Source: Scyliorhinus canicula (lineage: Eukaryota). Taken from it: a DNA stretch of 64,000 nt. Where the stretch lies: contig NW_024055427.1 in NCBI RefSeq assembly GCF_902713615.1, positions 124,001 through 188,000 on the forward strand, in the 5' to 3' direction. Position numbers and translations under genes: made by a program. Under the pieces are notes generated by a model that made no database searches, was not told the origin of the DNA, and worked only from the letters and a program-made list of their open reading frames with translations. Positions 15,259 through 33,459 of the stretch are shown here, piece by piece. The first letter of the stretch is position 1. Each line of letters opens with the position of its first letter.

Positions 15259-15298
15259 CACACTGCTGCAGAGTTATAGCGGGTCCCGTACATGAACT
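15259..15298 (+). other. RSS: CACACTG, 24-nt spacer, ACATGAACT (weak nonamer)
   Basis: Heptamer 15259-15265, nonamer 15290-15298. Confidence 0.7.
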
Positions 15299-17858: not shown

Positions 17859-18207
17859 GGGGGCAGCAGGGTAGCATGGTGGTTAGCATAAATGCTTCAC
17901 AGCTCCAGGGTCCCAGGTTCGATTCCCGGCTGGGTCACTGTCTGTGTGGAGTCTGCACGTCCTCCCCCTGTGTGCGTGGGTTTCCTCCGGGTGCTCCGGT
18001 TTCCTCCCACAGTCCAGGGATGTGCGGGTTAGGTGGATTGGCCATGCTAAATTGCCCGTAGTGTCCTAATAAAAGTAAGGTTGGGGGGGGGGGGGTTGTT
18101 GGGTTACGGGTATAGGGTGGATACGTGGGTTTGAGTAGGGTGATCATGGCTCGGCACAACATTGAGGGCCGAAGGGCCTGTTCTGTGCTGTACTGTTCTA
18201 TTCTATT
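17859..18207 (+). mobile_element. SINE family 1
   Basis: Near-identical to 5354-5706. Confidence 0.85.
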
Positions 18208-19640: not shown

Positions 19641-19914
19641 CGACTAAGGAGCCAGAGGCACGGAAGCTGCCGATGACGCCACAATGCCACCTCTCCTTAG
19701 GTCAAAGAAAGTAAAGGAGAGACTGTACTGAGTTGCTGAAATGTGAGTGGATCTGTCAATGAAGATGAAACGGAGCTGTTTCAAGCAGATCCTTGGATAG
19801 TACAAAGATCGGGGAGAAATAAAGCCCAGGAAAGTTCCATTCATTATGTATACTGCGATTTGCTGAACTACAGAAGAGGTGTCTAAAAAAAGGAAGAAAA
19901 TTCAACAATAACTT

Positions 19915-20880
19915 TGTTGCACGTTTTGCTATGGGCGCAGAACGCGTTTATTGGGGTGTATTAACTTGCCTATGTTAAAGGCCGTGTGCTTAACACCACT
20001 AGGCTCTGTCTTATGTATTTTTCAGCTCAGGAGTCGCCAGTTGCCATATAGACAACTCACATATATTCCAAGGTCAGGTTCAAAGTAATAAAACGATACA
20101 CCGATTAGTAAGTTCCAAACGATCAATATTTATTATACAATTATAATAAATACGCATGCACACACTAAGGGACTAAGCTATGACTAAACTAAGCAAACAG
20201 AATACTTAACTACACAGGAACAGGCAAGGTCAGGGAGCGAGGCCTTCGTCCCGGTCTTGGGCTGCAACCTTCAGAAAGCGTGCTGGTCACTGGGGGTTTA
20301 GCGGGCTTGTTTCGCGTAGCGAGCGTCGTATTGGCACTTACGGTTCGGCGGCTGGTGCTCAACGGCTGGAGTCAGGATACGAGTTGGAGGTCTTGGTCAA
20401 AGCCGGAGCACGAAACAACAGACAGGACCATGTGTGGGGGTCTATATTTATAGGGGTCCCCAATGTCCTTCCCTCTTCCTGGGCGGGCTTTACCTTTAGG
20501 TATCGATTGGATCGCTTCCAATCGATATCTTTTGAATTCCTCCAATGTAAGGGTCTTTCTCGACGGTGGGGGCGGTTTCTATAGTGGATACTTCTGGTGC
20601 CGCGCTGTCTGGACATCCACTTAAAGTATCTTATTCAAACCCAAATGTTGCCATTGTGTGTGCCTAGATCTGGACTGCCTCATTAGTATGTAGAACGTTC
20701 TGCCATTATCACCTTTGGTTGGAGATCTTCCACCTGGCCAGAAACTGGTTTTGCTGCTTGCAAAATGCTAATGAGTGTTTGCAGGCTGTTTGCCTTGGCT
20801 AAACTGTTTTTCCCTACAGTCTTAGCGATTCTCCATTTTGTTTGGTTCAGTGTCCATTTTAGGTGGCTACAGTGGCTACA
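19915..20880 (-). repeat. 3' LTR
   Basis: Identical to 31071-32036 except two substitutions found by eye (20564/31720 and 20604/31760). Minus-strand TATA (tataaata) near 20445 and AATAAA near 20130. Confidence 0.95.
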
Positions 20881-21251
20881 TTCCCTCCTTGTGATCCTCA
20901 CAATCAAAATATTGTGAAGGATCACCTATGTACGTTGCCTTGAGTGCATCTGGGTTGCCTTCTTTGTGTTCCCTGACCTCGGCAAGCTCCTGAGCGTCTA
21001 CTCTGTCCTTAAACTATGGGAAGAAATTTTTTTTAACTGACATCTCTACTTGGCGCTATGTCAAAGGGGACATGCATTACCACAAACGGGAACCTCTACC
21101 TATCACAATTATCCTTATCTTAACTTAAACATTTCATTACAGACTAAACCTCATCCATTCATACCACATCACATAACATTTCATGACTCGGCAGTCGAGT
21201 TCAGGACAATATAATACATGGGTATAATTTTTTTATTCATTACACAGTGCT

Positions 21252-21596
21252 TTATTCATCATGGGGCAAAGGGGATTGATGAAATCGAAAAATAGGAGAT
21301 CGAACTCCATAGACGGTTGAGGGGCAGGAACGGGAGGCTCTCCTCTTCCACTTCCTCAACCTGAGGGTCTGTACAAGTATGGCGAGGATCGCAATCACTA
21401 GCAGTGATTCAATCACGTATGACATGGAGTACCATGTCATAAATTTTGTGCACCAGGTCTGAACCTCACTGATCAGAGCTGAGCACGGGGGAGTTGCTGT
21501 AAGTGAAACATTTACGATGGGGGTTGTGGGGGAAACGTGTCTTGCTTCCACACATACGAACATAACATTTAAAAGCAATAAGTGGGCTTCCATCAT
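21252..21596 (-). CDS. 114-aa predicted type-I membrane protein in the env position of the LTR element
   Basis: Hydrophobic N-terminus (MMEAHLLLLNVMFVCVEA), NVS sequon, TM-like YVIESLLVIAILAILVQTL, basic cluster RLRKWKRR. Function unknown. Confidence 0.6.
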   Translation of the reverse strand: MMEAHLLLLNVMFVCVEARHVSPTTPIVNVSLTATPPCSALISEVQTWCTKFMTWYSMSYVIESLLVIAILAILVQTLRLRKWKRRASRSCPSTVYGVRSPIFRFHQSPLPHDE

Positions 21597-21772
21597 CTTC
21601 TCTTTGTTTTCCTTCTTTTCTTCCTCCTGTATGGCCGATCCTTGCTGTGGTCCCTGTTTCGTCCTTCGAAAGCTATGGGATCAAGCACAGTATCTGTCAA
21701 TACAGCTTAATATCCGTACTTGTTAGTGTATCTGTCTTTCAATTCCAATTGACCCATTAAAAATGACTGGCC

Positions 21773-23953
21773 TACAACGCTCCCATGGCGAGTGTACAGA
21801 CCAACAATACCAACTCCCAATACTTCCAGCTGCACAGGGGCACCAGACAAGGATGCCCACTGTCCCCGCTGCTGTTCGCACTAGCAATCGAACCGCTAGC
21901 AATCGCGCTCAGGGCAGCAAAAAATTGGAGGGGGATCCGAAGGGGAGGTAGAGAGCACAGAGTCTCACTCTATGCGGATGATCTGCTCCTCTATATCTCG
22001 GACCCACAAAGCAGCATGGACGGAATCATCACGCTCCTGAAAGAGTTTGGAGCCTTCTCGGGCTACAAACTCAACATGAGCAAAAGTGAGATCTTCCCAT
22101 TACACCCGCAAGGGGGGGGGGGGGCAGCACTAAAGGGGCTGCCGTTCAAACAAGCCCGACATAAATTCCGCTACCTGGGGATCCAAATAGCCCATGACTG
22201 GAAAGGGATCCACAAATGGAACCTCACCAGCCTGACGGAGGAAGTTAAAAAGGACCTGCAAAGATGGAACACACTCCCGCTCTCCCTCGCGGGGAGAGTT
22301 CAGACGATCAAAATGAACGTACTGCCCAGGTTCCTCTTCCTGTTTAGATCCATTCCGATCTACATCCCCAAGGCCTTTTTCAAAGCGCTGGACAAACTCA
22401 TCATGGCGTTCATATGGGGGGGGGGTAAAAATGCTAGGATCCCAAAGAAGGTCTTACAAAAAACAAAAACCAGGGGAGGGTTAGCCCTCCCGAATCTACA
22501 ACTCTACCACTGGGCAGCAACAGCCGAGCGAGTAAGGGGATGGATCCAGGAGCCAGAAGCTGAGTGGGTGCGTGCGGAGGAGGCCTCCTGCATGGGAACC
22601 TCCCTCCGGGCCCTCGCCACGGCAGCACTCCCATCCCCACCCAAAAAACACTCCAGCAGCCCAGTGGTGACAGCCACCCTCCAATCCTGGAACCAACTGC
22701 GGCAGCAACTTGGCCTGACCAAAATGTCGAACAGGGCTCCCATCTGCAACAACCATAGGTTCAAACCAGCACTGACCGACGCCACCTTCAAAAGGTGGAG
22801 GCAGGACGGGGGGACACTGACAGTCAGGGACCTATACACGGACGACAGGATCGCAACACTGGACGAACTGACAGAGAAATTTCAGCTAGCTGGGGGGAAC
22901 GAGCTACGGTACCTGCAGCTCAAAAACTTCCTACGAAAAGAGACAAGGACGTACCCACAACCGCCACGACAGACACTACTGGAAGACCTACTGGACGCAA
23001 GTATCCTAGAGAAAGGGAACTGTAGTGACATGTATGACCGACTGGTAGATAGGGACGACACCGTACTGGACGCAACAAGGAGGAAATGGGAGGACGACCT
23101 GGGGATGGAGATCGGGTGGGGACTCTGGAGCGAAGCACTGCATAGGGTCAACTCCACCTCCACGTGCGCAAGGCTCAGCCTGACGCAACTAAAAGTGGTA
23201 CATAGAGCCCACTTAACAAGAACCCGTATGAGTAGGTTCTTCCCGGAGGTGGAAGACAGATGTGAACGGTGCCAAAGAGGCCCGGCCAACCACGCCCACA
23301 TGTTCTGGTCCTGCCCCAGACTCGTGGAGTACTGGACAGCCTTCTTCGAGGTAATGTCCAAAGTGGTGGGAGTGAGGGTGGAGCCATGCCCGATAGTGGC
23401 GGTCTTCGGGGTTTCAGAACAGCCAGATCTATTCCTGGGGAGGAGGGCGGATGCCCTTGCCTTTGCCTCCCTGATCGCCCGCCGTAGAATCCTGTTTGGC
23501 TGGCGGTCAGCAGCACCGCCCAGAGCTGCGGACTGGCTGTCCGACCTCTCGGAATCTCTCCAAATGGAGAAAATCAAATTTGCCATCCGAGGGTCGGACG
23601 ACGGCTTCCACAGAACGTGGGAGCCATTCATGCAACTGTTCCGGGACCTCTTTGTGGCCAATGTACAAGAGGAAGAATAGTCGGGGGAAGGTAGCGGGGG
23701 GGGGGGGGGGGGGGGGGGGGGCTACAGGTTCGTTACGGGGGTTCGATGGCTAGCTAAGGCCCAAAACCAAGCTAAATAAACATGTTGAGGGGGGCAGGGG
23801 GCGCAGTTACTACTACGAAGATGCTTACCTGTAAATATGTATGTTAATTTTTGCGTGTTTGTTTTTGTTTGTTTTTTTTTTCTCTCTCCTAACAATTTGT
23901 AATTTGTTCAATATAAAATACGACAACTGAATAAAAACATTTATAAAAAAAAA
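21773..23953 (+). mobile_element. 5'-truncated L1-clade LINE nested in the LTR element; open ORF2 fragment 21785..23680
   Basis: RGTRQGCPLSPLLF, LYADD, C-terminal CERC...HMFWSC, poly(A) tail. TSD aaaaatgactggcc (21759-21772 and 23954-23967) at a TT/AAAA site. Confidence 0.92.
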
Positions 23954-24768
23954 AAAAATGACTGGCCAAGTCACACCCTGTGACTCCCCTCATTTTTTTT
24001 TCAAAACGAATTTAATGAACACAATACACCTAACAACTCTCCTCCTGCGAGCCGTCTCGCAGGCTTTGCTCATTTACCATCCGAATGTTCCTGGATGTAA
24101 ATAGCATGTGGGATGGCGGCCTAAGGGCTGCCTAACGAAAAATGAAAACAAATTGGAAATGAAAGGTCGAATGGGTTGCGTATGGGCCGCTACGGGTACG
24201 ATTTGAATGGGATCCCCAGGTAGGGCGTGCTGTGCCATACCCGAGCTTGGCTGACCAAAGTGGGTTCTCAGACAGGGCGGGTCCTCAGTGCCGTTTGTCC
24301 ACTGCCTGAGTAACCTGGAGTAAACGGGCAAGAATGTGTTTAGCGTGGATTTGCAGCCTCTATTCGCCGAATAGAGGGGCACCTAAAAACAATGGAGGAG
24401 CCAAGATGCTCCTTCATCTGAAAACAGGGAACAAGTCGTGAACCGTGTCGGTTCACCAGAGGATACAACTGAAGTTCTCAGAAGTTTCGGCAGACAAACT
24501 AACTTGCGTGCGAGGTGGTCGCACTCCTTACAACTGAAAAGATCTCCAATCAAACGGTTGGTTTGCGAACCAAAGTTCTCAAAGGTATTTGCGGACAAAC
24601 TAACGGGTGTGTGAGGTGGTCACAATCTTTTCAGCTGAAAAGATCTGTAATCAATCTCTTAACATATTAACAAACAAACATAAACTGACAAACAAACATA
24701 CGTGCAGGTTCCATCAGAAAGGACATCGCTTCCCTCAAGCGGTTCCTATTTTACATCATCTGAACACC

Positions 24769-26442
24769 TCACTTTTCCTCTGTCTCTGTGAACAGGGTCA
24801 CAAAGGGGTTGCCGTGTCGGGATTCAGACACCGTGTCGTCCTGCTCTCCCGGATCCCACACCCTTGTGTGGATCAGGCATGATATTTTTGAATTGTGTGA
24901 CCGGGGGTCACTTTCGTCATTGCGGACAAGTCGGTACGAATTGTCCCTGTGCCAGAGTGTTGGGTCCAAAAGTGAATAGGTATTGTCGGGGTCGTCGGGG
25001 TCGGGTGGTGGGTCTGGGTTTTTAATGTAAGTGACTTCCATGGGGTCACTGTAGTCGGGGTCATAGTCGCTGCTATGTGGGCTGTAGTGTGGTGTGCTGT
25101 GGCTGTCCTCAGAGTCAGTGTCTGTATTGCTGTCTCTGCCGCGGCAGCTTGTGGGCGTTTCGGGGCGTGGTCTGTCATGGTCAGTGGGCGGAGTCGTGGG
25201 CGAGTCCGATGAAGAACTGGTCTGTGAGGGGGATGGTGGAAACGTGTCTCTAGTGGGTGGGGTGAGGTGTTCTGCTGCGTCTAGCAAGACATGGTGTGCA
25301 TGGTTGGCCTGTGTTCCATATGCCTTTAACTGGTTGATATGGAACCACGCGGTCTTACCATTAGGATATTTTATCCTATAAACTGAGGGGCTAATTTTAT
25401 CCGAAATTGAGTATGGGCCAGAATATTTTGGTGCCAAAAAACTGCTGGGGTTGTATACAGATAACATTACCTGTTGCCCAACCTGGAATTCTGTGGGGTG
25501 AACGGTCTTGTTAAAACAAGCTGTGCGTTGTTTACGGCGTTTCCCTAGCTGAACTGCGGCTGCAATCTGTGCAGACCTCACAGTCTCAACCAAGTCTTTA
25601 ACCGTCTTTTCGTGTGTGAGGGCCGTCACTTCGGGGCTAGTCATGTCCAGTCCTAAAAGGAATTCTGTACCTTTCATAGGGCGTCCGGTCATGAGTGTGT
25701 GTGGTGTGTATCCTGTGGAAGTGGAAACTGTATTTCTGATGAACATTAATGCAAATGGGAGCACTGAATCCCATGTGGAGTTGTTCTCTTGAACCATTTT
25801 CCTAAGCGTGGATTTTAGGGTCCGATTCATGCGCTCTACAATCCCGCTGGACTGTGGGTGATACGCAATATGAAAATTTTGTTTTATTCCAAATATTGTC
25901 AGGACGTTCTTCATGACCCGTCCTGTGAAGTGAGATCCCTGGTCCGAATCGATGCTTCGGGGTAAACCCCATCTCGTGAAGATGTGGTGTGTCAGGATCT
26001 TTGCAGCTGTCTTAGCTGTATTCGTTCTAGAGGGGAATGCCTCTACCCATTTGGTAAAGGTATCGATGACCACCAGAACGTATTTATAGCCATTCCTACA
26101 AGGGGGCAATGGGCCTATAAAGTCGATCTGGAGGTTTGTCCAGGGGCCATTAACTGGTCGAGTATGCCGAAGTTGTGCCTTTTTAGAATACCTCTCCGGG
26201 TTATTCTGGGCGCAAATAAGGCAATTCTCGATGTAGTGACCTACATCTGTCCTTAGGTTAGGCCACCAACAGAGCTGCCTGAGGTGCCTCGTGGTTGCGT
26301 CGGTTCCTTGTTGCCCGTGTCCATCATGGAACAAAGCAATCATTTCATTCCTGTCCTGCTGTGGAACCACATAAAGCTGATCCTTTATGATCACACCCTC
26401 ATGTGTGGTCAGTGCGTGTCTGAATTTGTCATACTGTGGCAC
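24769..26442 (-). CDS. pol: Integrase portion of pol (separated from RT-RNase H by a frameshift near 26450)
   Basis: HDGHG...CLIC zinc motif, IDFIGPLP, DTFTKW, SDQGSHFT, HPQSSGIVERMNRTLK, GPY motif. Confidence 0.92.
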   Translation of the reverse strand: MPQYDKFRHALTTHEGVIIKDQLYVVPQQDRNEMIALFHDGHGQQGTDATTRHLRQLCWWPNLRTDVGHYIENCLICAQNNPERYSKKAQLRHTRPVNGPWTNLQIDFIGPLPPCRNGYKYVLVVIDTFTKWVEAFPSRTNTAKTAAKILTHHIFTRWGLPRSIDSDQGSHFTGRVMKNVLTIFGIKQNFHIAYHPQSSGIVERMNRTLKSTLRKMVQENNSTWDSVLPFALMFIRNTVSTSTGYTPHTLMTGRPMKGTEFLLGLDMTSPEVTALTHEKTVKDLVETVRSAQIAAAVQLGKRRKQRTACFNKTVHPTEFQVGQQVMLSVYNPSSFLAPKYSGPYSISDKISPSVYRIKYPNGKTAWFHINQLKAYGTQANHAHHVLLDAAEHLTPPTRDTFPPSPSQTSSSSDSPTTPPTDHDRPRPETPTSCRGRDSNTDTDSEDSHSTPHYSPHSSDYDPDYSDPMEVTYIKNPDPPPDPDDPDNTYSLLDPTLWHRDNSYRLVRNDESDPRSHNSKISCLIHTRVWDPGEQDDTVSESRHGNPFVTLFTETEEK

Positions 26443-29003
26443 AAAGTTGCCTTGAAAATCTCCCTGAGATCCTCATCTTGCTTTTGTGCCTCTACTAAAT
26501 CTTTAATACTGGTCTGTGAGACTTGGACTGCGCTCACAGGGGCGCTAGCTGGTGCGCTAGCTGGGGGTGTCCATAAGTGTCCTCGCCTGGAACCTGCCTT
26601 AGCCAGTGCGTCGGCTTTTACATTCCCAGGGGGGGATGACCTATGGTGGCTTCTTACTTTTATGATGCCGAAGGTCCTGTCCTTCGCTTTCTCCAAAATG
26701 TGTTTGAGTAAAGGGGCTGATGGAAGGGGTTTCCCATCTGCGGAGACAAAACCTCGTGTCCTCCACAGGGGCAGAAAATCGGTTAAACTATTGCAGACAT
26801 ATAAACTGTCCGAATATATGTCCGCTGGGCTGGGGAAAGAATCGGGGTGGTCCACTATATAAGCTATGGCCGCGAGCTCTGCTGCCTGCGCGCCTAAGTG
26901 TCCGGGTAGTTTTAAAGCTATCTCTTCGAGAGCGCGCCCCTGCGCGTCCTCTACATAGATGCCGCATCCTGTGATACGCTCACCTTCTAAAACTGTGGAT
27001 GAACCGTCTACGTATATCCTCAGTGGTCCACACGTGTCTGTGGGTTGGGGGCTTTGTTTTGGGTTCCCTATCTTCCTGGGGGGTGTCTTTGCTATAAAGG
27101 GTCCTGTGTTATGTAAGGGGGCTACAATTTCACATTCATGGGGCTGTCCTGGGTATTGGAGGTTGTCAGCTAAAAATGTGTGTGTGCGGGTCCGTTTGAC
27201 TGTAATGTCCCGTCCTTGTAAAAGTAGTGTCCACCTAGCTGCCCTAATCTGGCTAACTGAACCGTCCTTCAGTCGACCGTCTAGGAGTAACTGTGTGGGG
27301 GTGTGCTCGGTCAAAATGGTGGTGGGGTTGAGTCCGGTAATGTACGAAAAATATTGCACTGCCCAGAAGACAGCAAGGAGGTGCCTCTCGCAGGCTGAAA
27401 ATCCTTGTTCAACTGGGTCTAACAGTCGGGAGGCATAAGCCACTGGTCTTAGCTGCTCGTGCCGTTCCTGAAGCAACACGGCCGAGAGGGTCAGATCTGT
27501 GCTCGCTACCTCTATTGCATATGGGGAAAGTTGGTCTGGGACTTGTAGCGCGGGTGCTGCGCTAAGGGCTTTCTTTAACTCCTCCACAGCCTCTGTATGC
27601 TGCGGAAGCCATTCCCAGGGGGCTCCTTTCTTAAGGAGGTCTGAGAGTGGGGCGGCTTTTGTCGCGAATCCGTCGATGTGGTTCCGACAATAACCAACCA
27701 GTTCTAAAAACGACCGGAGGGCTGAAACATTCTGGGGAAGGGGCAATTTGACAATCGAATCAATTCTTTTGAATTCGATCTCGCGTTTGCCGTGCGTGAT
27801 GATTGTACCCAAATACATCACTTTATTTTCCAAAATCTGGGCCTTTCTTGGGTTAACTTTACATCCAATCTCGGTTAAAAGTTCCAGGAGTTCGGCCAGA
27901 AGCGTAATGTGCTCTGCCTTTGTGTCTGTCTGCAGTAGTAGGTCGTCTACATACTGTACCAGACATTCGGGGCGGGAAAATTTTTCTAAGCCATTCGCCA
28001 ACTGTCGGTGGAAAATGGAGGGGGAATTGTGGAATCCTTGTGGAAGGCATGTCCACGTATACTGTTGTGTTTTAAAAGTGAAGGCAAATTTGTACTGGCA
28101 CGCCTTTGCCAATGGGATTGACCAGAAGCCATTGCTAATGTCCAAAACCGTGAAATATTTGGAGTTGAGTCCCTGCTTGAGCATGGTCTCGGGACTTGTT
28201 GCTACCGTGGGGGCTACTGCTGGGGTTACTTTATTGAGTTCCCGATAATCAATGGTCAGACGCCATGATCCGTCGGGCTTTCTCACTGGCCAAATAGGAG
28301 CATTATTGGTCGAGGCTACTGTTCTAAGCACACCTTGCTCCAATAAGCTACCTATCACCTTTTCTATTTCTACCTCTGCTTCTAGGGGAAATCTATATTG
28401 TTTTTGTGGTCTGGGGTCAGGTCCGGTAACGTGAATTTGTCCAGCCATTCTGCCGCAGTCATGCCGGTGACTGGCAAATGCTGTCCTGTGTTTATTCAGT
28501 ACTGCCTTAACTTGTCTGTCCGTGTTTAGTGTAGTCAAGTCAAATGAGTATTCTCCTACTGCACTAATCCTGTTAGCGTACTCTCCTACTGTGAGAGTAG
28601 CGGGTGCTCTGTCCGATCTTGCCATTCGCCAGACACATTGGTTCACTGGGTCGAACGACAGGCTATGGGCATTCATAAAATCTGTCCCTAGGATGTGTTC
28701 TGCTGTCCGGGGAAGATTTACTAAAACAACGGGGTGTTTGGTGGAAATGTTCCCTAGCTGGATTGCTACGGGTGCTGTAATATGTCCCTGCTGCGAGTGT
28801 CCGGTGAACCCGCTAAGTGTGATGGTGGAGGTGGTCGGCCACGTGTCTGTGTGTGCCGTGGTGGTGGAGTTAATTGTGGTGCGGGAGCCTCCTGTGTCCC
28901 AAAGTAACTCTATGGGCTTCCCTCTTAATTTTGCCGTGACTACTGGTCTTCCTGATGGATCCCATAGTGTGTCACAGACCCAAGTGGGGGAGCCCGAACA
29001 CCG
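26409..29003 (-). CDS. pol: Protease-RT-tether-RNase H portion of pol, in frame with gag across a UGA
   Basis: LWDTGGS at about 28896; PQKQY, DYRELNK, LDISNGFW, LPQGFHNSP, YVDD (27942-27953). Degenerate RNH at about 27280-27525. Intact RNH with YVDGS / AELAA / YSDS / KADALA at about 26600-27020. Confidence 0.93.
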   Translation of the reverse strand, partial: RCSGSPTWVCDTLWDPSGRPVVTAKLRGKPIELLWDTGGSRTTINSTTTAHTDTWPTTSTITLSGFTGHSQQGHITAPVAIQLGNISTKHPVVLVNLPRTAEHILGTDFMNAHSLSFDPVNQCVWRMARSDRAPATLTVGEYANRISAVGEYSFDLTTLNTDRQVKAVLNKHRTAFASHRHDCGRMAGQIHVTGPDPRPQKQYRFPLEAEVEIEKVIGSLLEQGVLRTVASTNNAPIWPVRKPDGSWRLTIDYRELNKVTPAVAPTVATSPETMLKQGLNSKYFTVLDISNGFWSIPLAKACQYKFAFTFKTQQYTWTCLPQGFHNSPSIFHRQLANGLEKFSRPECLVQYVDDLLLQTDTKAEHITLLAELLELLTEIGCKVNPRKAQILENKVMYLGTIITHGKREIEFKRIDSIVKLPLPQNVSALRSFLELVGYCRNHIDGFATKAAPLSDLLKKGAPWEWLPQHTEAVEELKKALSAAPALQVPDQLSPYAIEVASTDLTLSAVLLQERHEQLRPVAYASRLLDPVEQGFSACERHLLAVFWAVQYFSYITGLNPTTILTEHTPTQLLLDGRLKDGSVSQIRAARWTLLLQGRDITVKRTRTHTFLADNLQYPGQPHECEIVAPLHNTGPFIAKTPPRKIGNPKQSPQPTDTCGPLRIYVDGSSTVLEGERITGCGIYVEDAQGRALEEIALKLPGHLGAQAAELAAIAYIVDHPDSFPSPADIYSDSLYVCNSLTDFLPLWRTRGFVSADGKPLPSAPLLKHILEKAKDRTFGIIKVRSHHRSSPPGNVKADALAKAGSRRGHLWTPPASAPASAPVSAVQVSQTSIKDLVEAQKQDEDLREIFKATLCHSMTNSDTH

Positions 29004-30752
29004 TCAGTCCATTCCGTCCACATTGGTCTGTCCTGACTGTATCCCTATACTATGGATCGGTTTTGTTTTATTCCTGTTCAGAGTGCCTGTCTGCTGGCCT
29101 CTCTGTGATCTCTGGGGTCCATTACATTCTTTTGCCCAATGCCCTAACTGTCCACAGTTGTAGCATTCCTGCGACTTCTGTGGAGGACTGCTCTTTCCTT
29201 CATTCACCCATGCGGGTTTTTGGTGCTCTCTCACTGCCTGTATGTCTGCTGCAGCCTGAGCTTCTTCTGGGGATTGAACTCTACTCTTGCCCTGAACTGA
29301 TTGCTCCCAAGTGCGGGACAATCTTTTCAGGACCCACTTCTCATTATGGGCTTCCTCTGAGGGGTCATAGCTGTTGCAAACGCTCTGTCCTGCTTCTGTT
29401 GCATGTGAAATTATGGTGCGCGTCCATTTAACCATGTTTTCACGGTTCAAATGGGCTCTATTTAAATCGCCAAATACTGCATTAAAATGGATCCACAGCC
29501 TTCCGGCGAATGCTGTGGGGTGCTCGGATTTCTTCTGCCGGCACTTATTAAGTCCTTCTACGGGGTCACCTCGATTATACCCTATGGCATCTAAAATGGA
29601 GGTGTGCATTTCCTCTAGGGTGCCTCCGCCAACATTCTGTGGGTCGGGGAGGGCTGCTACAACCGATTGGTCCAAACTCAGAACTGTGAGTTTGACCTGC
29701 TCTCTCTCGTCCAGGCCGTACATGGTAGCCTGCTGTTTTACCTTAGCGAAAAACTGGTGGGGGTCTGCGGTGGGGAGAAACGGAGTGATCTTCTCACACG
29801 CGTCCCTTAGTTGGGTTACAGTTAAGGGGGTGGTGTAAGTTATATCGGGTGCGCCGTCTATGGTCGCTTTTCTCTGGGTGGTGACTGGATTCATTGGAAT
29901 GGTGAGGAGCTGATCTGTAGGGGGTTGGGGTGCTTGCCTTTTCTGCTGCGCTGCTGGCGCACATGTTCCCTGAACATAACGCTGCGCTGTCTCACTTAAC
30001 TCTTTCCAGTCTGGGGCATTCTCCTCATCTAACTGGGTTCCAAAGGTGCTTTGAAACCCATTTTGCACCGAAAGCAGCGATTGCAGCTCTGCAATCTGTT
30101 TCCTGCATTTCGCTTGGTCTACTGTACTTTGCCTTTGTTCGGTGGTTGCAGCATGGAGTGCTCTCAAAGCTGCTTTAAGGTCAGAGCATTGCCTCTGCAA
30201 AGCTTCTACCTGCTTCTCTGATTCTTCTCTTATCAGGACGGCACGTTGCACGTCCTGATAGGCCTTTTCGTACTGGGTCAGGGAACTGCTGAGATGGGCT
30301 AGACAAGACTGATGTGCCCTCTTGGCATCATCCACCTCTCTACCTTTCTCTGCCAACTTCCCTCTAAGTTCCATGTTTTCCTTTTCGATGTCCCTGACAT
30401 CCACTTTACTCATTCTATTCCTTTCTTCTAATTCTGCCCGGAGCGTCTGAACGACCTCCTCTGTGCCTCGCAATTGTGCCAAACAGGACACAATCGCCAT
30501 CGGCTTACGTGCTTTACTCATGTTTTTCTTATGAATTTGAGAGAGGTTCTCCCACCAAGTATGTCCTATACTTCCGGGACCTGTCTCCTCATTCAAACAA
30601 AACTCTTTCCAAAGGGGCCATCCCTTTCCTTGCAGATACTTGCGGAGTTCCAGCTCCCACATGGGACACTGACCTACTCGGCTACTGCTGCTGGTCGCTG
30701 CGACCACAAACCGTTCTGGGTTCATGAGGCGTTCCATTGCCTGCATGGCCAT
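29004..30752 (-). CDS. gag: Gag-like polyprotein, 582 aa
   Basis: Long heptad-rich coiled-coil-like segment, capsid-like central region, single CCHC knuckle CYNCGQLGHWAKEC; located directly 3' of the 5' LTR. Confidence 0.88.
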   Translation of the reverse strand: MAMQAMERLMNPERFVVAATSSSSRVGQCPMWELELRKYLQGKGWPLWKEFCLNEETGPGSIGHTWWENLSQIHKKNMSKARKPMAIVSCLAQLRGTEEVVQTLRAELEERNRMSKVDVRDIEKENMELRGKLAEKGREVDDAKRAHQSCLAHLSSSLTQYEKAYQDVQRAVLIREESEKQVEALQRQCSDLKAALRALHAATTEQRQSTVDQAKCRKQIAELQSLLSVQNGFQSTFGTQLDEENAPDWKELSETAQRYVQGTCAPAAQQKRQAPQPPTDQLLTIPMNPVTTQRKATIDGAPDITYTTPLTVTQLRDACEKITPFLPTADPHQFFAKVKQQATMYGLDEREQVKLTVLSLDQSVVAALPDPQNVGGGTLEEMHTSILDAIGYNRGDPVEGLNKCRQKKSEHPTAFAGRLWIHFNAVFGDLNRAHLNRENMVKWTRTIISHATEAGQSVCNSYDPSEEAHNEKWVLKRLSRTWEQSVQGKSRVQSPEEAQAAADIQAVREHQKPAWVNEGKSSPPQKSQECYNCGQLGHWAKECNGPQRSQRGQQTGTLNRNKTKPIHSIGIQSGQTNVDGMD

Positions 30753-31070
30753 TTTCTCTGACTCACTTTTAAATTTAGGAACAGGGGGTGTTGAGGTTAT
30801 GTCTCACGAAACGGGTAAGGCTTACGCTATGTTCCGTTCACAAAACTACCGAAAGTTTGTCGCAACAAAAATGCTTTCAGGTTTTCCTTACAACCCTGTT
30901 AGTACGCATGCACTAAACACACTTCCGAATTACGCTTATTTCTTTGAACACCTTGAATATTTGTGATTTCTTTCCGTTTTCTTTACCAGATTTCCAATTC
31001 AAATTTCAGGGTCCTCGACGGAGTGGGGGTACCACTTGTAACCGTGTCCCGTCAGGATGTCGCCTCTAAA

Positions 31071-32036
31071 TGTTGCACGTTTTGCTATGGGCGCAGAACG
31101 CGTTTATTGGGGTGTATTAACTTGCCTATGTTAAAGGCCGTGTGCTTAACACCACTAGGCTCTGTCTTATGTATTTTTCAGCTCAGGAGTCGCCAGTTGC
31201 CATATAGACAACTCACATATATTCCAAGGTCAGGTTCAAAGTAATAAAACGATACACCGATTAGTAAGTTCCAAACGATCAATATTTATTATACAATTAT
31301 AATAAATACGCATGCACACACTAAGGGACTAAGCTATGACTAAACTAAGCAAACAGAATACTTAACTACACAGGAACAGGCAAGGTCAGGGAGCGAGGCC
31401 TTCGTCCCGGTCTTGGGCTGCAACCTTCAGAAAGCGTGCTGGTCACTGGGGGTTTAGCGGGCTTGTTTCGCGTAGCGAGCGTCGTATTGGCACTTACGGT
31501 TCGGCGGCTGGTGCTCAACGGCTGGAGTCAGGATACGAGTTGGAGGTCTTGGTCAAAGCCGGAGCACGAAACAACAGACAGGACCATGTGTGGGGGTCTA
31601 TATTTATAGGGGTCCCCAATGTCCTTCCCTCTTCCTGGGCGGGCTTTACCTTTAGGTATCGATTGGATCGCTTCCAATCGATATCTTTTGAATTCCTCCA
31701 ATGTAAGGGTCTTTCTCGATGGTGGGGGCGGTTTCTATAGTGGATACTTCTGGTGCCGCTCTGTCTGGACATCCACTTAAAGTATCTTATTCAAACCCAA
31801 ATGTTGCCATTGTGTGTGCCTAGATCTGGACTGCCTCATTAGTATGTAGAACGTTCTGCCATTATCACCTTTGGTTGGAGATCTTCCACCTGGCCAGAAA
31901 CTGGTTTTGCTGCTTGCAAAATGCTAATGAGTGTTTGCAGGCTGTTTGCCTTGGCTAAACTGTTTTTCCCTACAGTCTTAGCGATTCTCCATTTTGTTTG
32001 GTTCAGTGTCCATTTTAGGTGGCTACAGTGGCTACA
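31071..32036 (-). repeat. 5' LTR
   Basis: Near-identical to 19915-20880; followed by TSD actt. Confidence 0.95.
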
Positions 32037-32519
32037 ACTTTAAGAAGGAAATGTAAAGGCAATTACATGGCTATGTAGAAAAGACTATTTTTGAAAGAAG
32101 AATAAGGTAACCATTTCAAAGTGTCTCGGGCAATATAGATCGTGTAGCCTCATCCCTGACTCGAAGATTCTAGATTCTAGTCCGTCATGTCCTTTCCAAT
32201 ATATTTCTTCTCAGTGCCTTGCACAGTGAGCAGGTGCAGGATGGTCACGGTGCAGTGAAGATTCAACCGTCGCTATTTCCGCTCCATCACTCCGAGCACA
32301 GCTGAGAGTCACCGCACACGTCACTCAATATTCAGACTGCGTTACCCCCGCCCACTGCTTCCGGTTGCTGCTCTCACTCTGACCCAATTGTGGAGAGATT
32401 GCTGCTGCTGGTTCATTCCTCTCATTGGCCGGTTCAGCAGTGCAGTGTGACGGGGATCTGTATTTCTGTCTCTGACAGAGGATGTCTCTCATTGCAGAAT
32501 CACAAACTCAGGAAGGATC

Positions 32520-33064: not shown

Positions 33065-33459
33065 CCACACTGGCAGTTCCAGCTGCTGCTCAGCAGGGCG
33101 CGCGTCATCATGGGCAGTTCAGGTTACACAGTGAGTGACAAACATTGTAACAAAACATCTCAAAAATAACAAGAGGTGAGGTCCACTTGCACAGTTAAAC
33201 CAATTTACGATTGCAACTTGCATTCATAACAGATGTAAGATTGACGAATCGATCTGTTATTCCTTAAATCCTGCTTCTTGTTCATATCTTGGTGTACAGA
33301 CTCACTCACTCAGTAAACTATCAGGTCTCATTGGACAATAGCAAATGCAACAATTTAAATTAATGTTGAGCTTTTCACATCATTACATGTCCAAAGCAGT
33401 TTCAGAGGAGCATTTAGGTCAAATGATCAAAAACCTGCTCAAAGAGTTCGGTTATTTGG

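Follow-up and report, generated by a model that had tools for sequence, protein, structure and literature searches.

We analyzed a 64,000-nucleotide window of the genome of the shark Scyliorhinus canicula (contig NW_024055427.1, positions 124,001 to 188,000 of the forward strand; coordinates below count from its first letter). An earlier note had reported in it a very young, near-intact, env-less long terminal repeat (LTR) element with foamy- or loki-like Pol, lying in a T-cell receptor (TCR) locus. TCR-type V segments with 23-type recombination signal sequences (23-RSS) are indeed found at 15259, 17696, and 33025, and the element (19915-32036, minus strand) lies antisense between them. The element turned out to be a damaged representative of a young endogenous retrovirus (ERV) family with many copies, which lies in the basal part of the Retroviridae and belongs likely to the snakehead-retrovirus-like group. 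The part worth following is that this env-less family carries, in the env slot, a small open reading frame (ORF3) under purifying selection, predicted to encode a membrane protein.

The two LTRs have 966 bp (TG...CA; 5' LTR at 31071..32036, 3' LTR at 19915..20880) and differ by 2 substitutions. A 4-bp target duplication, ACTT, is present at both ends of the element (left copy at 19911..19914, right copy at 32037-32040). Between the LTRs lie, all on the minus strand, a primer binding site for tRNA-Arg(UCU) (31046..31065, preceded by a 5-nt spacer), a further stretch of the leader that can pair with the anticodon arm of this tRNA (30992..31003), gag (29004..30752), a frame for protease, reverse transcriptase (RT), tether, and RNase H (26409..29003), an integrase frame (24769..26472), a non-coding spacer (23968..24768), ORF3 (21252..21596, 114 aa), and the polypurine tract (20881..20890). 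The complete LTR-gag-pro-RT-RNase H-integrase-LTR layout, the 4-bp duplication, the two LTR differences, and the lack of env are thus as first reported. Gag has 582 aa, a helical N-terminal half, a capsid of the retrotransposon/retrovirus type, and one CCHC knuckle; it ends in TGA followed by CGG, and the downstream frame is the same as that of gag. In Pol, Pfam detects RT_RNaseH, a Gypsy-type RNase H-like tether, at residues 493-596 and a second RNase H (PF00075) at 662-805, which bears out the two RNase H folds described before, whose quoted motifs are also found in the sequence. Pfam further detects the zinc knuckle in Gag, the protease, the RT, and the integrase, the last with an intact DDE, a GPY motif, and an acidic/proline-rich tail. 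Whereas the Gag knuckle was found again, the coiled-coil-like region attributed to Gag is seen only in a low-confidence structural model (helix 119-205, mean predicted local distance difference test 40), and a strict heptad scan of Gag found no coiled coil. Three features had escaped the earlier reading: the TGA that separates gag from pol within one frame, the primer site for Arg-tRNA, and ORF3 itself.

The window copy is not near-intact. Its pol is frameshifted upstream of the integrase, near 26410-26470, with the RT-bearing frame ending past the frameshift. A 2.2-kb, 5'-truncated long interspersed nuclear element (LINE) with a poly(A) and a 13-bp target duplication occupies 21760..23967 of its 3' region on the plus strand; this is a later insertion and not a component of the family. 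The HHCC pattern of the integrase zinc finger is broken, the first base of the primer site is unlike that of other copies, and five residues are private to this copy. The LINE is itself young, with an open 637-aa RT end frame, and since it sits inside the ERV, its family was active after the ERV integrated.

The divergence between the two LTRs corresponds to 0.5 to 5 million years at 2.2e-9 and 2.2e-10 substitutions per site each year, rates taken from two papers (here and below, published work is used from excerpts of the articles). A 1-kb RT probe gave 3841 first-look matches in the species' own genome, which are candidates and not copy numbers; 40 were scored, all 98-100% identical. Among 20 copies of this subfamily (A) sampled from the 40, 11 have an open pol of 1411 aa. 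In 14 of the 20, both LTRs are complete and show 0-10 mismatches to each other, and 12 of these 14 have an exact 4-bp duplication. These duplications were made by integration. A protein search revealed a second subfamily with a 1408-aa pol (10 of 82 rows taken whole; DNA 85-89% identical), some copies of which have identical LTRs. Full-length frames hold over half of 120 further RT matches. All these samples consist of best-scoring matches and hence lean toward young copies. The search of the genome thus uncovered a large young family with two subfamilies, in line with the recent activity proposed before, and no env-bearing relatives, the env searches being weak.

The family is transcribed in sense. 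Reads from three raw RNA runs, chosen by one species label and mapped to a LINE-free copy, span this copy from end to end, and nearly all those of the two oligo-dT runs map to the strand that sense RNA would give. In the oligo-dT runs depth is several-fold higher over the last 1.5 kb of the element, the rise beginning approximately at the spacer between pol and ORF3, which may reflect 3' bias or a shorter RNA.

In 28 of the 30 other copies (two were not measurable), the end of pol and the polypurine tract are 1572-1864 bp apart, and no sense ORF between them exceeds 142 aa. Env is absent from the window and from all 28 measurable copies. Loss of env is known in ERVs. ORF3 is of full length (113-114 aa) by motif in 17 of 21 subfamily A copies, with three truncated and one unmatched, and present in 9 of 10 copies of the second set. 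Its N-terminus is hydrophobic; further features are an N-glycosylation site (NVS) within a Thr/Pro-rich piece, two Cys, an aromatic stretch ahead of the hydrophobic helix, one predicted transmembrane helix, and a polybasic RLRKWKRR tail. Hydropathy and a structural model thus predict a single-pass membrane protein.

ORF3 is conserved as a protein, under purifying selection. In four cross-subfamily pairs, its ratio of nonsynonymous to synonymous divergence (dN/dS) is 0.17-0.21, compared with 0.07-0.09 for gag and 0.07-0.08 for pol; the other sense frames of the same pairs give 1.0-1.1 and 2.5-4.7, and flanking DNA 0.36-1.47. Within subfamily A, the corresponding polymorphism ratio (pN/pS) is 0.13 for ORF3 (13 copies; 17 synonymous and 7 replacement variants), next to 0.15 for gag and 0.17 for pol. 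All 150 scored genome matches to the ORF3 core are 95-100% identical and free of stops. Three points weigh against our account of ORF3 and of the missing env. All four dN/dS pairs include one and the same A copy, set against related copies of the second subfamily, so they come close to a single comparison. A GT..AG joint into ORF3 was not seen in four runs, which leaves its mRNA unexplained. Finally, since the copies are best-scoring matches, older env-bearing relatives may have been missed: in the own genome, PF00523 gave no match (a weak search, whose first look was stricter and which had no positive control), and a piece of the Env of snakehead retrovirus (SnRV) matched none of 8 candidates, again in a weak search.

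Selection among copies suggests that the ORF3 protein likely benefits the element that encodes it. The family would multiply as a retrotransposon-like ERV, and ORF3 would enter the secretory pathway. In Drosophila, an env-less LTR element is described whose short single-pass polybasic protein carries capsids between cells (PMC11952523). ORF3 resembles this sORF2 of MDG1-group retrotransposons, and the reovirus FAST proteins, in being a short single-pass protein with a juxtamembrane polybasic run, and in some Lepidoptera elements sORF2 lies downstream of pol, as ORF3 does (PMC11952523). In contrast to the sORF2 and FAST proteins described there, ORF3 has no N-myristoylation motif and has a signal-like N-terminus, its ectodomain would have about 45 residues if cleaved versus about 30, it has 114-118 aa versus 63-107 aa, and its host element belongs to the Retroviridae and not to the Metaviridae. 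The missing motif and the signal-like N-terminus indicate that ORF3 is not a member of the sORF2/FAST group, though it may work alike. Our best single guess for its role, and a tentative one, is that it stands in for Env by helping capsids to move from one cell to another. Anchoring of Gag at membranes is less likely, as is some role outside this set, and immune evasion less likely still. A broader version, in which Env was given up and ORF3 is a FAST/sORF2-like passage device that let the ERV flood the shark germline, a first case in the Retroviridae and convergent with insect retrotransposons, we regard as speculative.

ORF3 may instead be what an internal deletion left of env: the signal peptide fused to the membrane-proximal, transmembrane, and tail parts, retained for a task inside the cell, such as Gag anchoring, with no role between cells. 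Its position in the env slot, the hydrophobic N-terminus, the aromatic stretch ahead of the helix, and the basic tail fit such an origin. On the other hand, ORF3 shows no match to SnRV Env, its transmembrane part included, it falls in no Pfam family above cut-off, and no env-bearing relative was found for comparison. We consider this origin possible, if unlikely. In further searches, none of 3687 candidates with lengths of 62-207 aa was an ORF3 homolog at E<=1, and all Atlas feature matches stayed below 0.9. The excerpts of the literature consulted describe neither this family nor any vertebrate ERV with a FAST-like ORF; as Repbase and Dfam lay outside this scope, the family may already be catalogued in a repeat library.

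The usual view of ERVs without env is that they stay within a single cell and that nothing selects for a surface protein in them. In this family, selection preserves a short ORF for a predicted membrane protein, located where env would be, almost as strictly as it preserves gag and pol, and it does so in both young subfamilies. Should ORF3 carry capsids from cell to cell, transmission independent of env, to date shown in Drosophila Metaviridae, would extend to vertebrate Retroviridae.

To place the family, we used an RT tree of 73 rows and trees of other Pol domains. SnRV, eight loki Pols, and seven foamy Pols were identified by the motifs printed in the RT alignment of PMC7947760, in which the motifs of the window element are carried by SnRV and not by loki. 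RT identity is 48% to SnRV, 38-41% to loki, 36-38% to foamy viruses, and 54-57% to ERV Pols of frogs and coelacanth; the RT stretch quoted before as spumavirus-like is thus closer to SnRV than to foamy. In the RT tree, the element falls inside Retroviridae proper (support 100/98), with loki (100/99) and foamy (100/100) in groups of their own. It belongs there to a clade (99/98) of 19 ERV Pols, whose sources include frogs and coelacanth, and the position of SnRV is without support. The tether tree keeps it in Retroviridae (97/97) to the exclusion of loki, and the RNase H tree recovers loki plus foamy (98/89) without it. The retrovirus-grade character of the element, i.e., tether plus RNase H, and its basal position are supported by Pfam and the RT tree. 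Approximately unbiased (AU) tests rejected joining the window element with loki (p=1.4e-5) or foamy (p=0.009), and the clade with loki (p=0.0097), but allowed the 19-row clade with SnRV (p=0.52), 0.4 log-likelihood units above the free tree. SnRV is the best RT and RNase H match among named viruses, and has gag-TAG-pol in one frame and one zinc knuckle. We take its primer site to be of the tRNA-Arg type. Judging from the sequence comparisons, the family is basal within the Retroviridae and probably SnRV-like (clade Huo). That this classification and the selected membrane protein both hold is, in our view, fairly likely; any fusion role is outside this judgement.

SnRV and the SnRV-like ERVs (clade Huo; PMC6001957, PMC4977317, PMC12193657) have in common with the family a helical Gag N-terminus, one knuckle, and gag-stop-pol, and the clade spans all vertebrate groups (PMC6001957; PMC4977317). 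SnRV also has small 3' accessory ORFs, a position like that of ORF3. The shark family differs from SnRV in lacking env, in using UGA and not UAG, in a presumably different Arg isoacceptor, and in its 966-bp LTR; its integrase and tether are far from those of SnRV, and ORF3 is unlike SnRV Env. In elephant shark, SnRV-clustered ERVs with env are already known (PMC4422223). Their lineage I of CmiERV is likewise SnRV-clustered, from a cartilaginous fish, and about 9.6 kb long; compared by description only, it is unlike the shark family in its downstream env, an LTR divergence of 3.3%, and few copies. ERV3 and ERV4 are also retroviruses of non-mammalian vertebrates outside classes I and II; they have 5-bp duplications, no Gag zinc finger, and no GPY/F (PMC4299795), whereas the shark family has 4 bp, one knuckle, and GPY. 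In these three features it resembles the unclassified SnRV/Ovex1-related ERVs mentioned in the same paper.

Several observations weigh against an SnRV-like placement. A grouping with SnRV received support in none of the trees (RT, RT-tether-RNase H, integrase, tether, RNase H). The integrase is about 40% similar to loki versus 29% to SnRV, with a tree position lacking support and CGIN1 outside the tree, and the tether is 33-44% similar to loki versus 25% to SnRV. Gag matches SnRV Gag weakly (hhalign probability 42%), and phmmer did not find this similarity. The trees used LG+G4 with no mixture model and references labelled by motif, and Odin, ERV4, CmiERV, and fish foamy-like sequences lay outside them. 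The family might therefore be a separate basal lineage, together with the frog and coelacanth Pols annotated as "NYNRIN-like", that is not a true sister of SnRV and has kept an ancestral loki-like tether and integrase. The free RT tree, with its 99/98 clade without SnRV, agrees with this, as does a quick RT-tether-RNase H tree in which snakehead, foamy, gamma, and epsilon viruses form a group (98) that leaves the clade out, although that tree comes from an unfinished search in which long branches meet. Yet union with SnRV is not rejected in the AU test, and the two have gag-stop-pol, a single knuckle, and presumably the primer type in common. Such a separate lineage appears rather unlikely to us. 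The family also represents a basal clade that evolves slowly and has an integrase and a tether near those of loki, which makes it useful for rooting the retrovirus tree.

A relationship with the fish foamy-like ERVs is very improbable: the best PDB matches are foamy Pol, narrowly over murine leukemia virus (239 vs 232 bits), but the AU test rejects union with the seven foamy viruses sampled, and the family has an in-frame gag-stop-pol and a CCHC knuckle, whereas foamy Gag has no zinc knuckle. ERV-Spuma.0-Sca is a different element, by layout and sequence.

That the element is the first lokiretrovirus of a cartilaginous fish, with env lost, is hardly tenable: the dual RNase H, the integrase and tether similarity, and the coiled-coil Gag and env-less members described for loki-related BHIKHARI elements speak for it, but the AU tests, the loki RT motifs of the printed alignment that are missing here, an RNase H outside loki plus foamy, and the lack of a PF00523 match in the weak search all oppose it. 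The AU tests and the trees of RT, tether, and RNase H thus exclude both affinities proposed in the earlier note, and the claim of lokiretroviruses in sharks falls, while the loki-like similarity of integrase and tether remains. Lokiretroviruses and Odin share with the family the tether plus RNase H, and Odin is likewise without env; the env of loki is paramyxovirus-F-like (PF00523) (PMC7947760, PMC9040795). The suggestion that lokiretroviruses are unreported from chondrichthyans holds for the five chondrichthyan rows in a table of PMC7947760, a gap that the window element does not fill. The RT motifs were not found in the supplements of PMC10435555, a study that demanded an intact env; a generic motif was likewise absent from them, so the alignment there may be unreadable. 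Many database proteins of frogs, coelacanth, and turtle named "NYNRIN-like" are ERV Pols of this basal clade. Scans of viral and metagenome sequences yielded just one close-clade fragment, among 46 metagenome loci, and it was not used.

Reverse transcription is primed by mature tRNA-Arg(UCU). In three ERV copies, about 44 nt of the complement of the spliced, CCA-ended tRNA follow the LTR and replace part of the leader, and the perfect variant of the primer site matches a tRNA-Arg(TCT) gene. Self-priming of the Tf1 type was discarded, as the primer-site complement in the LTR is no longer than 7 nt. Ordinary copies keep the second site matching the anticodon arm at 30992-31003, which suggests that the primer anneals at two sites. 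Among 31 copies, the primer site is a perfect tRNA copy in 8, has one or two extra bases in 22, and was not found in one; the imperfect site thus persists alongside the tRNA-copied one.

Gag and pol form one frame across a conserved TGA: the TGA-CGG end of gag with pol in the same frame occurs in 21 of 21 copies of subfamily A and in 10 of 10 from the second set. Pol would be produced by stop-codon readthrough, against which stands the result of a search for a readthrough stem-loop, where the fold after the TGA did not go beyond shuffles (z -0.64). The spacer (23968-24768 and 21597-21759) includes an 87-nt imperfect repeat pair at 24467-24654. Between subfamilies it diverges by 0.11-0.17, versus 0.4-0.7 at synonymous sites, in all frames, which points to a non-coding element; no fold beyond shuffles was found in it (z -0.85).

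On a small contig of the same genome, the insertion recurs together with its LINE and its frameshift and differs by 3 substitutions in 7.6 kb, yet the left flank there is about 5% different all the way to the junction. This may reflect a haplotype switch at a heterozygous insertion, conversion, or an assembly artefact. A short interspersed repeat recurs around the element, at 17861-18134, 33458-33644, 35235-35612, and 35958-36124; it is probably a short interspersed nuclear element (SINE) of tRNA origin, and its copy at 17.9 kb is absent from the small contig.

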